DNA of 8,034 bases from a virus (taxonomy: Duplodnaviria; Heunggongvirae; Uroviricota; Caudoviricetes): IMG/VR virus record IMGVR_UViG_2695420602_000004; one strand, 5' to 3'. Of the stretch, positions 3,414 through 5,775 are shown piece by piece; within the stretch, counting starts at the first letter, position 1, and each line of letters starts with the position of its first letter. The notes under the pieces are model-generated. The model was not told the origin of the DNA, ran no database searches, and saw only the letters and a list, made by a program, of their open reading frames with translations. Both the position numbers and the translations under genes were made by a program.

Positions 3414-3815
3414 GTGGCAAAAGTTTTTACACAAGAAGAGCGGGAAAAAATTAAAGGGCAGGTGGTGGAACTCGTACGCCAGAGTGGGCGCGAGACATTA
3501 CGACAACTGGAAGCTAAAACTGGGGCAACAAGATATCTGATGAGCGTTCTGGCCAGAGAGCTGGTTGCCAGTGGCGATGTATACAGCTCTGGTTACGGGT
3601 TATTCCCGTCTGAACAGGCGCGTAAGGACTGGCAAAACGCCCGCAAAAAACTCTCGAGGGCAAAGGTGAAGAAAACAGCTGTGATTGATCCGGACCTTAT
3701 CTGGTCGTTACCTGATGGAGAAATACGTCGCTACGACAGTCGCCTAAACATAATCTGTCGCGAGTGCCGGATGAGTGAAGTTATGCAGCGCATACTGGCA
3801 TTTTATCAGGGATAA
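3414..3815 (+). CDS. ren: Ren-like protein (133 aa), GTG start
   Basis: AGGAGG (3404..3409) 4 nt before GTG 3414; C-terminus ...ICRECRMSEVMQRILAFYQG and an internal ...KTGATRYLMSVLARELVASG resemble remembered lambda Ren (...FKECRQSAAMKRVLAVYG; ...LTGATVTSINQAA...); sits right after the replication gene, as ren does in lambda. Confidence 0.55.
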   Translation: MAKVFTQEEREKIKGQVVELVRQSGRETLRQLEAKTGATRYLMSVLARELVASGDVYSSGYGLFPSEQARKDWQNARKKLSRAKVKKTAVIDPDLIWSLPDGEIRRYDSRLNIICRECRMSEVMQRILAFYQG

Positions 3816-3912
3816 TGTTAGGTATTTTAGACGTTACTAGATTAAAAAGCATTAGTTCAGGAGTGAATTGACATTCTCATTTTTCATGGCACAGGGTAGA
3901 TCTGGCGTGGTT

Positions 3913-3936
3913 GTCCGCTTTGTGCCAAAAGCGGAC
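3913..3936 (+). other. Strong stem-loop (9-bp stem GTCCGCTTT / AAAGCGGAC, 6-nt loop) in the ren-cargo intergenic region, no T-tract
   Basis: Direct reading of 3913..3936; not followed by a U-run on either strand, so not a canonical intrinsic terminator. Confidence 0.4.
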
Positions 3937-4004
3937 GCCTACGCCCTAACTAAGCTATTGTGTAATATACGGTACACAATAGCGAAAATTCTAAGCTTGG
4001 GAAT

Positions 4005-4937
4005 ATGGAAATCAACAAAGAAAAATTGTCAGGTTTACTTAACTACTTCGAGTCTCGCAAGAAATACGCTGCAACTCGAATATCTAGTTTATCCAGTCAG
4101 AATGAGATCTGTTTCGCTTTGTCAGGATTGACGTTTCGAAACGGGCCTTATGTTTTCCAAGACGTAGGTGAATTAAGGGAGGTACTTCATCCACCAGGAG
4201 AGATAGAGTTAGCCAAAGCGCTTAAGAGCAAGTCGCTACTCAGCGCTGTTGCTCGTCATATGCCCGCAGTTACGCATGAGCTTGCGTTGCAAAGCAGTGA
4301 GTCGAAATTTTCTCAATCAGACCTGACTATCGGATGGTGGATCATATCCGCGATCCGATGCCGCACACTCACCGATATACTTGTTCCTGCAGTAGCAAGT
4401 GCATCTTGGGATGTATTCCCTGCTCTTCAAGCCAACTCGTGTGAAGTCCAACTTCTTGAGGACGTGCCGGCAGTTCGGAGAATAAGCCCAAGTGTAGAGA
4501 TATCAGTAGAGTCTCTCGACTGGGTTCAAGAGAATCTCAAGCGTTGGATAGATCTGCTAGAGCAACCAGCATTCCGGCTCGCTATTGATTCTTTAACTAC
4601 TCACAACCAACACGCGAATTTGAGAATGGCTGCTGCTGCTTTATGGGCAGGATTTGAAGCGCTCTTTGGAATCAATTCAGAGCTTCGTTTTCGTCTTGCT
4701 CTTATGGCCGCAGCATATCTTGAGGAGCGAGGGCCTGATCGTTTAGCCACCTATCGTAGGGTTAAGAAGCTGTATGACTACCGTTCGAAGGCAGTGCATG
4801 GGGGAGCTACGTCAGATAACTTTTTAGTTGAGCATATAATTGAGGTACGAGTGCTTTTATCCCGATTAGTGTGTCGCATGACAGAGATCGGAAAAATGCC
4901 CACAACCGACGATTACGAGGAACGGCTTCTAACTTAA
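4005..4937 (+). CDS. 310-aa cargo protein with C-terminal R-x4-H motif (R260-S-K-A-V-H265); candidate HEPN-family RNase / abortive-infection-type defence protein
   Basis: Single long ORF with only a weak SD; 189-bp structured intergenic region upstream and 11-bp-stem hairpin downstream; motif YRSKAVHGG (nt 4782..4799) in what reads as an alpha-helical C-terminal region; the flanking genes are conserved lambdoid genes. Domain call is inference from the motif only. Confidence 0.7.
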   Translation: MEINKEKLSGLLNYFESRKKYAATRISSLSSQNEICFALSGLTFRNGPYVFQDVGELREVLHPPGEIELAKALKSKSLLSAVARHMPAVTHELALQSSESKFSQSDLTIGWWIISAIRCRTLTDILVPAVASASWDVFPALQANSCEVQLLEDVPAVRRISPSVEISVESLDWVQENLKRWIDLLEQPAFRLAIDSLTTHNQHANLRMAAAALWAGFEALFGINSELRFRLALMAAAYLEERGPDRLATYRRVKKLYDYRSKAVHGGATSDNFLVEHIIEVRVLLSRLVCRMTEIGKMPTTDDYEERLLT

Positions 4938-4997
4938 GGCTTTTTCTAAGGTAACTTGGAAAAACGCTTGTTTTATCTATACACAGTAAGCCTAACT

Positions 4998-5029
4998 TCA
5001 GTTAACCCGCAATAATGAGGGTTAACTGA
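4998..5029 (+). other. Perfect 11-bp-arm inverted repeat TCAGTTAACCC-N10-GGGTTAACTGA, 61 bp downstream of the cargo gene
   Basis: Direct reading; no adjacent T-tract on either strand, so either a T-tract-less transcript-end or stability hairpin or a protein-binding palindrome; CAGTTAAC recurs at 5509..5516 in the hok leader. Confidence 0.4.
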
Positions 5030-5318
5030 TCAACCTCCAAGATTAGGTACAATGAAGTGGTCAACAAAAACTGGCCACCGCAAGAAAACACGTCTATGTC
5101 AGTATTTATTCCGAACTTCCGTTGTTCGCTCAAAGCGGACTAAAAGGTTAGCTTGTGTCGGACTTTGCGTATTAAAAGAAGTGCAGGTGGTGACTAGTGG
5201 TTGAGCCCCATTTCCACAGAAAAAATCAGAGAAACTATACCCAATAGTTGTATTGAATCACTGACGAGACAGCCTCATATTCATCAGGACTGGTGTACGT
5301 CCAATACAGGAGGTTGTG

Positions 5319-5444: not shown

Positions 5445-5619
5445 GGCTGCGGGTGCTTGAGGCTATCTGCCTCGGGCATGAACACCAACGGCAGATAGAG
5501 AAAAGCCCCAGTTAACATTACGCGTCCTGCAAGACGCTTAACATTAATCTGAGGCCAATTTCATGCTAGACACATGTAGGTTAGCCTCTTACGTGCCGAA
5601 AGGCAAGGAGAAGCAGGCT

Positions 5620-5775
5620 ATGAAGCAGCAAAAGGCGATGTTAATCGCCCTGATCGTCATCTGTTTAACCGTCATAGTGACGGCACTGGTAACGAGGAAA
5701 GACCTCTGCGAGGTACGAATCCGAACCGGCCAGACGGAGGTCGCTGTCTTCACAGCTTACGAACCTGAGGAGTAA
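5620..5775 (+). CDS. hokD: Hok-family type I toxin (51 aa, MKQQKAMLIALIVICLTVIVTALVTRKDLCEVRIRTGQTEVAVFTAYEPEE), HokD/RelF-like
   Basis: Sequence recognised as Hok family (TM helix plus conserved LCE.R....EVA.F.AYE); an in-frame upstream ATG at 5563 gives a 70-codon extended ORF; SD-like AAGGAG at 5604..5609. Confidence 0.85.
   Translation: MKQQKAMLIALIVICLTVIVTALVTRKDLCEVRIRTGQTEVAVFTAYEPEE

Follow-up and report, generated by a model that had tools for sequence, protein, structure and literature searches.

Solo HEPN defence genes are already known. ApeA (9HXB, 9HXD, 9HXI and 9HXL) is a protein of about 550–600 residues in which a helical N-terminal domain and a Mid domain precede a C-terminal HEPN domain split by large insertions; it forms an oligomeric doughnut, a decameric or dodecameric ring, and has a dinucleotide ligand and tRNA targets. 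Ligand bound in a HEPN/N-terminal pocket leads to cleavage of tRNA anticodon loops, and the catalytic mutant behind the ApeA structures is R502A (bioRxiv 10.64898/2026.01.26.701840). HepS, the "HEPN solo" protein of Gifsy-1 (9OIJ and 9OIK), is an inactive tetramer that is opened by the siphovirus tail-tip protein J and then cuts tRNA anticodon loops (Nature 2026, PMC13043305). HepT/MntA (8xdj, 7ae2 and 5yep), of about 130–140 residues, is a two-gene toxin–antitoxin system whose toxin is AMPylated by the MNT antitoxin, and in the validated protein DS-11 an N-terminal regulatory CBS domain and a HEPN effector share a single chain (Science 2026, PMC13092281). Here we describe a 310-residue protein that we consider, with a probability of roughly 0.65, to be a stand-alone, normally inactive HEPN ribonuclease of the ApeA/HepS kind, carried by a prophage as abortive-infection cargo, with an N-terminal domain that would both hold the enzyme off and sense infection.

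The window, by which we mean the whole stretch of 8,034 nucleotides that was analysed, is part of a Qin/Rac-type lambdoid prophage of E. coli. It runs from an IS1A end (1–393) through a cI-like repressor, a cro-like gene, a YdaT-family gene, a replication gene and a DUF977/LygF gene to the ORF considered here, and then on to hok/sok, rem, DUF968 and RusA. The 310-residue ORF claimed in the initial annotation is present as an ATG-to-TAA frame on the + strand (4005–4937), and its predicted product, a solo HEPN protein, is identical to WP_042058399.1, from a reference prophage locus that matches the window at 100% identity over positions 3905–5145. The place assigned to it, between a ren-like gene and the hok region, also holds: one phage annotator gave the upstream DUF977/LygF gene (3414–3815) the name "Ren-like exclusion protein", and downstream lie sok (5451–5625; Rfam, 115 bits) and a Mok/Hok ORF (5563–5775). 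In K-12 Qin, relBE is presumably located just upstream of hokD, and its presence there would imply that this slot recurrently houses toxin-like cargo.

The HEPN assignment was first made from the stretch YRSKAVHGG (residues 258–266), and computationally it holds. R260 (codon 4782–4784) and H265 (codon 4797–4799) were correctly placed and are conserved, but the catalytic-type motif R260-S-K-A-V-H265 (4782–4799, + strand) is by itself at the level of chance: at least one R-x4-6-H occurs in 80% of shuffles of the protein, R-x4-H occurs in 42%, and a second R-x6-H of the protein, at residues 84–91, is unconserved. What raises R260-x4-H265 above chance is its conservation. In an alignment of 44 homologs, with identity down to 41%, R260, S261, V264, H265 and G266 are invariant in all 44, as are T199, H200, W214, G216, E218, E226 and R230 elsewhere in the C-terminal region, and the N-terminal invariants include R18, G41, P64, E68, E92, W111, R118, P128, W135, E152, D153 and P155. 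Of 245 C-terminal domains that were extracted, 243 have the R-x4-H arrangement, and in a divergent set of 32 such domains (alignment A2) the arginine is invariant and the histidine at least 90% conserved.

The family to which these sequences belong is large. A word-indexed search recovered 220 homologs of uniform length (about 300–320 residues) from Enterobacteria, Pseudomonas, Burkholderia, Planctomycetes and Acidobacteria, and an exhaustive profile search reached 3,713 clusters (50% identity) at E≤1e-3, 183 of them at E≤1e-30. The comparison with Pfam and PADLOC models that the initial annotation had called for matched no family at E≤10; NCBIfam likewise gave no match at this threshold, and the only PHROGs match was to the unannotated family PHROG 28161. 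Pfam scans of the 44 homologs, 10 distant members and the 32 divergent C-terminal domains, made with a library expected to include HEPN_Apea, returned nothing significant, and PADLOC gave no more than marginal HEPN-type matches for the divergent domains, with a single one to Cas13-ApeA (E=0.042). Several proteins of ~160 residues (P0204, P0206, P0211, P0212 and P0260) match the C-terminal HEPN domain only (profile positions 151–310). These may be stand-alone HEPN relatives of the family or fragments from short contigs; if genuine, they would be HepS-sized versions.

AlphaFold2, supplied with the homolog alignment, returned a confident model (pLDDT 92.2, pTM 0.89). The N-terminal region (residues 1–165; 4005–4499, + strand) consists of a long helix (2–29) and an α/β domain (34–150) and is a candidate sensor or regulatory domain; the initial annotation had left this part unassigned, and it is indeed a conserved domain that matches no named domain and no structure with confidence. 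The C-terminal region (residues about 166–310; 4500–4934, + strand) is a predicted ApeA-like HEPN domain, which the model renders as all-helical from 168 to 309, with the four helices in an up-down bundle that define a HEPN core and with R260-x4-H265 at the end of the helix spanning 244–264, the canonical place at the end of core helix 3. The helical bundle anticipated at the C-terminus is thus what the model predicts. A Foldseek comparison with the PDB gave only generic four-helix bundles (best E 0.45); no confident relative and no HEPN structure was among them.

At the level of sequence, a link to ApeA emerges that is weak but specific. The full-length profile gave 0 matches to PDB sequences, and the profile of the 32 divergent C-terminal domains matched Thr1ApeA (9hxl_A) at E=2.1e-4, with 9hxd, 9hxi and 9hxb following at E 0.11–0.34 (Ec2ApeA at E=0.11). 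ApeA was the only PDB sequence family that this profile matched, and other HEPN families gave none. Two motifs, a "W..IE.L" motif in helix 1 and the catalytic "Y..R(S/N)..VH(G)", are colinear between the C-terminal domain and ApeA, and the alignment puts R260/H265 on Ec2ApeA R502/H507. Together with the conservation of R260 and H265 and the predicted helical C-terminal domain, this profile match lends computational support to the proposal that the ORF encodes a HEPN-type ribonuclease and a defence candidate.

The protein resembles ApeA in organisation as well: each is the product of a single gene, with a C-terminal HEPN domain on which extra N-terminal sequence is packed, and neither comes with an antitoxin, so that both are presumably autoinhibited. 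In contrast to the multidomain ApeA, however, the 310-residue protein has one α/β N-terminal domain and a compact HEPN domain, and its lack of a profile match, half size and different N-terminal architecture indicate that it is not a member of the ApeA family. With HepS it shares a solo gene without partner or antitoxin and an accessory slot downstream of lambdoid prophage replication genes, but the HepS motif is R100-H105 and its trigger, protein J, may well not apply to the protein described here. The HepS family as published left out proteins longer than 250 residues or with additional predicted domains (PMC13043305). At 310 residues and with an extra 165-residue N-terminal domain, our protein falls outside that family, and HepS (9OIJ) gave neither a sequence nor a fold match in our PDB profile and structure searches. 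The absence of an MNT neighbour and the fused N-terminal domain set it apart from HepT/MntA. DS-11, another member of the E. coli accessory genome, has the same layout of N-terminal regulatory domain and HEPN effector in one protein, but the N-terminal domain studied here is unrelated to CBS or any other named domain. In a published HHblits comparison the nearest defence family was PD-T7-4/DUF4145, at 29% coverage and a probability of 63.8 (PMC13092281); in our searches the protein matched neither DUF4145 nor PD-T7-4 in Pfam or PADLOC at E≤10. It is therefore part of a separate family without a name (PHROG 28161), one that, by analogy, would work like ApeA or HepS.

The gene is rare in E. coli (27 of 5,426 complete genomes) and was not found by tblastn in 50,697 phage records, a distribution consistent with the accessory cargo that the initial annotation had taken it to be; a search of 72,556 plasmids gave a single, distant match from Sphingomonas (30.6% identity). 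Its description as a single-gene module is also upheld. The 12 genomic contexts that we examined, which included four from E. coli, an Enterobacter island, a small Pseudomonas island, Paraburkholderia, a Planctomycetota genome and a metagenomic contig, contained no conserved neighbouring gene and no MNT-type or other antitoxin gene. The Paraburkholderia homolog adjoins Ogr/Delta genes and a T6SS effector cluster. The metagenomic contig (L014) was the single case of a gene tightly flanked by two ORFs; these, considered as possible paralogs or partners, proved unrelated to the HEPN family. Enterobacter hormaechei (L008–L011) has a homolog of 74% identity, found where an island that carries a P4-type D5/primase gene has its variable end; an FRG-domain gene is adjacent and a YjhX toxin gene is nearby, in what is a mobile-element accessory region. 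In E. coli Eco_23-2667 the HEPN cassette is followed immediately by one that holds a DUF4160 gene (L003, 8337–8714), and a DUF4160+DUF2442 pair lies ~1.2 kb downstream of the Pseudomonas homolog (L012, 8067–8765); this proximity could be coincidence or a loose association.

The ORF is embedded in a mobile cassette (3913–5140, + strand) made up of a boundary hairpin that we call A, a leader, the HEPN gene, a structured trailer and a second boundary hairpin, B. The A hairpin (GTCCGCTTT-GTGCCA-AAAGCGGAC; 3913–3936) has perfect 9-bp arms and a 6-nt loop and is enclosed by a longer imperfect stem (3897–3952), and the B hairpin (TTCCGTTGT-TCGCTC-AAAGCGGAC; 5117–5140) has the same 9-6-9 plan. The leader contains, just before the ribosome-binding site, a hairpin with a perfect 11-bp stem seen in both sequence and RNA fold (GCTATTGTGTA / TACACAATAGC; 3954–3983, + strand), which could serve as an operator or act in the leader of the mRNA. 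Another hairpin immediately follows the stop codon of the ORF, and the trailer holds a palindrome with 14-nt arms (TCAGTTAACCCGCA / TGAGGGTTAACTGA; 4998–5029). With these five elements the structured non-coding DNA noticed earlier on both sides of the ORF is readily recognised; a scan of the window found no + strand sigma-70 promoter 5' of the ORF and no canonical terminator 3' of it. A TGGCACAG motif (3887–3894) lies 26 nt upstream of the A hairpin, and at a spacing of 26–27 nt it accompanies A in both lambdoid lygF slots and P2 gene-G slots (the window, L004, L063, L084, L104 and L141). Because the reverse complement of TGGCACAG overlaps the A loop, an alternative long-range pairing is possible.

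This block of ~1.2 kb recurs, at 99.1–99.3% identity, in three further and unrelated contexts: a P2-like prophage, one island located next to tRNA-Pro and IS1A, and another composed of small genes. Homology between the contexts ends at 3912–3917 and at 5140–5141, inside the A and B hairpins, whose outer arms vary between contexts at 2–3 of 9 positions while the interior varies by <1%. Conversely, phage Evi has both flanks and both hairpins in common with the window and carries a different cargo between them. For the HEPN cassette and for cargo of the Evi type, genomic context is tracked by the outer arms and the cargo by the inner arms and loops. The idea that one hairpin had been split by an insertion, leaving outer arms that pair with each other, found no support, since these arms formed 6.54 pairs compared with 6.33 after permutation and 978 of 10,000 permutations equalled or exceeded the observed value. 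The Gifsy-1 record of strain LT2 (NC_010392), considered as a link to HepS, was likewise set aside: it contains no R100-H105 ORF and no A or B hairpins.

The slots that receive this cassette are used by other genes as well. In the P2-like prophage of strain LD27-1 the HEPN cassette lies between the tail-fibre assembly gene G and the sheath gene FI, the Z/fun slot, and in phage P2 itself fun(Z) is flanked by an A hairpin and a B hairpin. The likeness lies in the G–FI slot and the two hairpins; fun(Z) is unrelated to the HEPN protein, and blastp against the matching 528-residue cargo ORF reached only E=0.059. The literature cites two P2 loci as variable and as including anti-phage genes, and the Z/fun slot is one of the pair; the hotspot that Rousset et al. 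2022 (PMC9122126) analysed experimentally was the cos-adjacent tin/old locus, with the mechanism of exchange stated as unknown. The title of Nilsson et al. 2004 proposes site-specific recombination at the variable loci of P2. In Evi, HannyBb and Rac, different genes fill the lygF–hok slot.

In viral contigs, a scan yielded 43 complete A hairpins. Together with the other loci, the contigs gave 26 unique A...B cassettes, which hold 21 distinct cargoes (0.5–3.5 kb), and the A/B pair marks the boundary in lambdoid, P2-like and other contexts (including L002–L004, L007, L141 and viral loci L025–L136). In 7 lambdoid contigs the distance between the lygF start and the A site is ~500 nt, and the site is found ~100 nt beyond the gene; in 5 contigs it follows a P2 G-like gene at ~70 nt. 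PADLOC models were matched by 7 of the 10 largest cargo proteins; the matches comprise PifA (1e-64), PDC-S39 (5e-103), SIR2/ThsA (9e-32), HNH, a TIR/ThsB-like protein and a trypsin-like effector, and the SIR2/ThsA cargo adjoins an adenosine deaminase. At least 9 of 39 unique sites have the order B hairpin, semi-conserved linker of about 10–18 nt, A hairpin. Tandem cassettes are seen in E. coli Eco_23-2667 (L003, 6960–8839), where the small genes are each flanked in this manner and a frameshifted integrase lies ~6 kb downstream, and at L002 (5232–9224), where two cassettes adjoin tRNA-Pro. This tandem layout resembles an integron-like array. In one lambdoid lygF slot (L135, 7012–9100) the cargo is a 595-residue PDC-S39 protein (DUF7380+DUF4209), a cargo type that recurs in viral contigs L083 and L108 in unclassified context. 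The C-terminus of the PDC-S39 protein contains "LRNQLAHG", another R-x4-H, so that the lygF slot may also house a further HEPN-like candidate.

How might such a protein act? By analogy with ApeA and HepS we envision a scenario in which two chains probably pair, so that R260 and H265 of both build one RNase site, and the N-terminal helix and α/β domain (residues 1–165) keep the enzyme off while serving as its sensor. Activation would come from a cue made during infection, such as a protein of the phage or some small molecule; the activated enzyme would cut an essential RNA, most plausibly tRNA anticodon loops, and the resulting arrest of translation would stop phage growth.

Three other readings are each less likely than the defence reading. 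One of them holds that the protein is a toxin of the toxin–antitoxin type, not an infection sensor, which stabilises the cassette or prophage by addiction and is neutralised by a cis-encoded RNA or a small leader or trailer product. Two of the hairpins around the gene, however, are generic slot boundaries common to unrelated cargo; the window contains no ToxI-type repeat array, the contexts examined all lack a neighbouring MNT or other antitoxin gene, and a conserved N-terminal domain of 165 residues is better explained as a built-in regulator. We therefore regard an addiction role as unlikely, while noting that toxin–antitoxin and abortive-infection roles are compatible with each other. We are similarly doubtful, indeed a little more so, that the protein is a HEPN RNase without a defence role, processing or degrading RNA for the prophage or host in lysis–lysogeny, the stress response or plasmid competition. 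A gene so rare and patchy in E. coli, which has moved recently between mobile elements and occupies a slot common to many defence-model matches, is not what this would predict, and the sequence link is to ApeA specifically.

It is also conceivable that the C-terminal bundle is HEPN-like in shape only, a binding or scaffold protein without nuclease activity in which the conserved arginine and histidine are structural. The generic four-helix bundles returned by Foldseek and the lack of a significant HEPN HMM match are what such a protein would give, but the R...H pair is conserved together with its flanking serine and glycine at the canonical spot, and in the alignment it falls on residues that are catalytic in ApeA; we consider this reading very improbable. 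We thus favor the model of a self-contained HEPN ribonuclease that acts in abortive infection from a defence hotspot.

That this protein may be of interest for defence has been signalled before. RefSeq names it "HEPN domain-containing", and Table S10 of the DefensePredictor study lists its exact accession in one of 1,041 E. coli clusters of "predicted, uncharacterized defense proteins", with a log-odds of 9.43, where the stringent cut-off is 4; the protein was outside the 118 units tested there (PMC13092281). Given this name and this listing, the computational flag is not new. DS-42, a protein of 311 residues adjoining it in the same table, is an unrelated membrane protein. What our analysis adds to the known solo HEPN genes is a large, uncharacterised family with a new N-terminal domain. 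If it is an active defence, it would be a compact ApeA-like solo HEPN system of 310 residues with a new regulatory domain, and its family, spanning Proteobacteria, Planctomycetes and Acidobacteria, is missed entirely by current defence-finding models. Since ApeA and HepS respond to very different cues, the trigger of this family would show how one nuclease core has been rewired to different sensors.

The cassette boundaries lead us to a more tentative proposal, which we think possible rather than probable: that a dedicated DNA-level mechanism, acting at the two 9-6-9 hairpins with loops GTGCCA and TCGCTC, shuttles defence genes between the hotspots of unrelated prophages, such as the lambdoid lygF–hok and P2 G–FI slots, tRNA-linked islands and tandem arrays, in an integron-like manner without a known recombinase, that the HEPN gene is one cargo of this largely uncharacterised system, and that the N-terminal domain of the HEPN protein senses a new class of infection cue. 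Our searches linked no recombinase to the A/B sites, and the site sequence had no relevant match in the searchable literature. The hairpin boundaries offer a testable handle on the rapid swapping of defence genes at fixed positions in phage genomes. A third hairpin class, with GTCCGCTTT/AAAGCGGAC arms and the loop (A/G)CCCCC, occurs within 60 nt upstream of A sites in two viral contigs (L072 and L073).

Several features elsewhere in the window deserve mention in their own right. Directly downstream of the cassette lies a complete hok/sok-type type I toxin–antitoxin locus (5451–5775). At the other end, the IS1A end at positions 1–393 is 99.7% identical to the copy at L002 and disrupts the prophage in its early-left region, on the ydfC/dicB side; the reference prophage (L001) is alignable only from window position 760 on. 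In the tRNA-Pro island (L002), too, a copy of IS1A is found, immediately upstream of the cassette. Finally, at 1668–2427 a Cro/YdaS-like gene overlaps a gene for 173 residues, called "toxin YdaT family protein" in RefSeq, and the two adjoin the cI-like repressor as the usual pair of the Rac/Qin immunity region.
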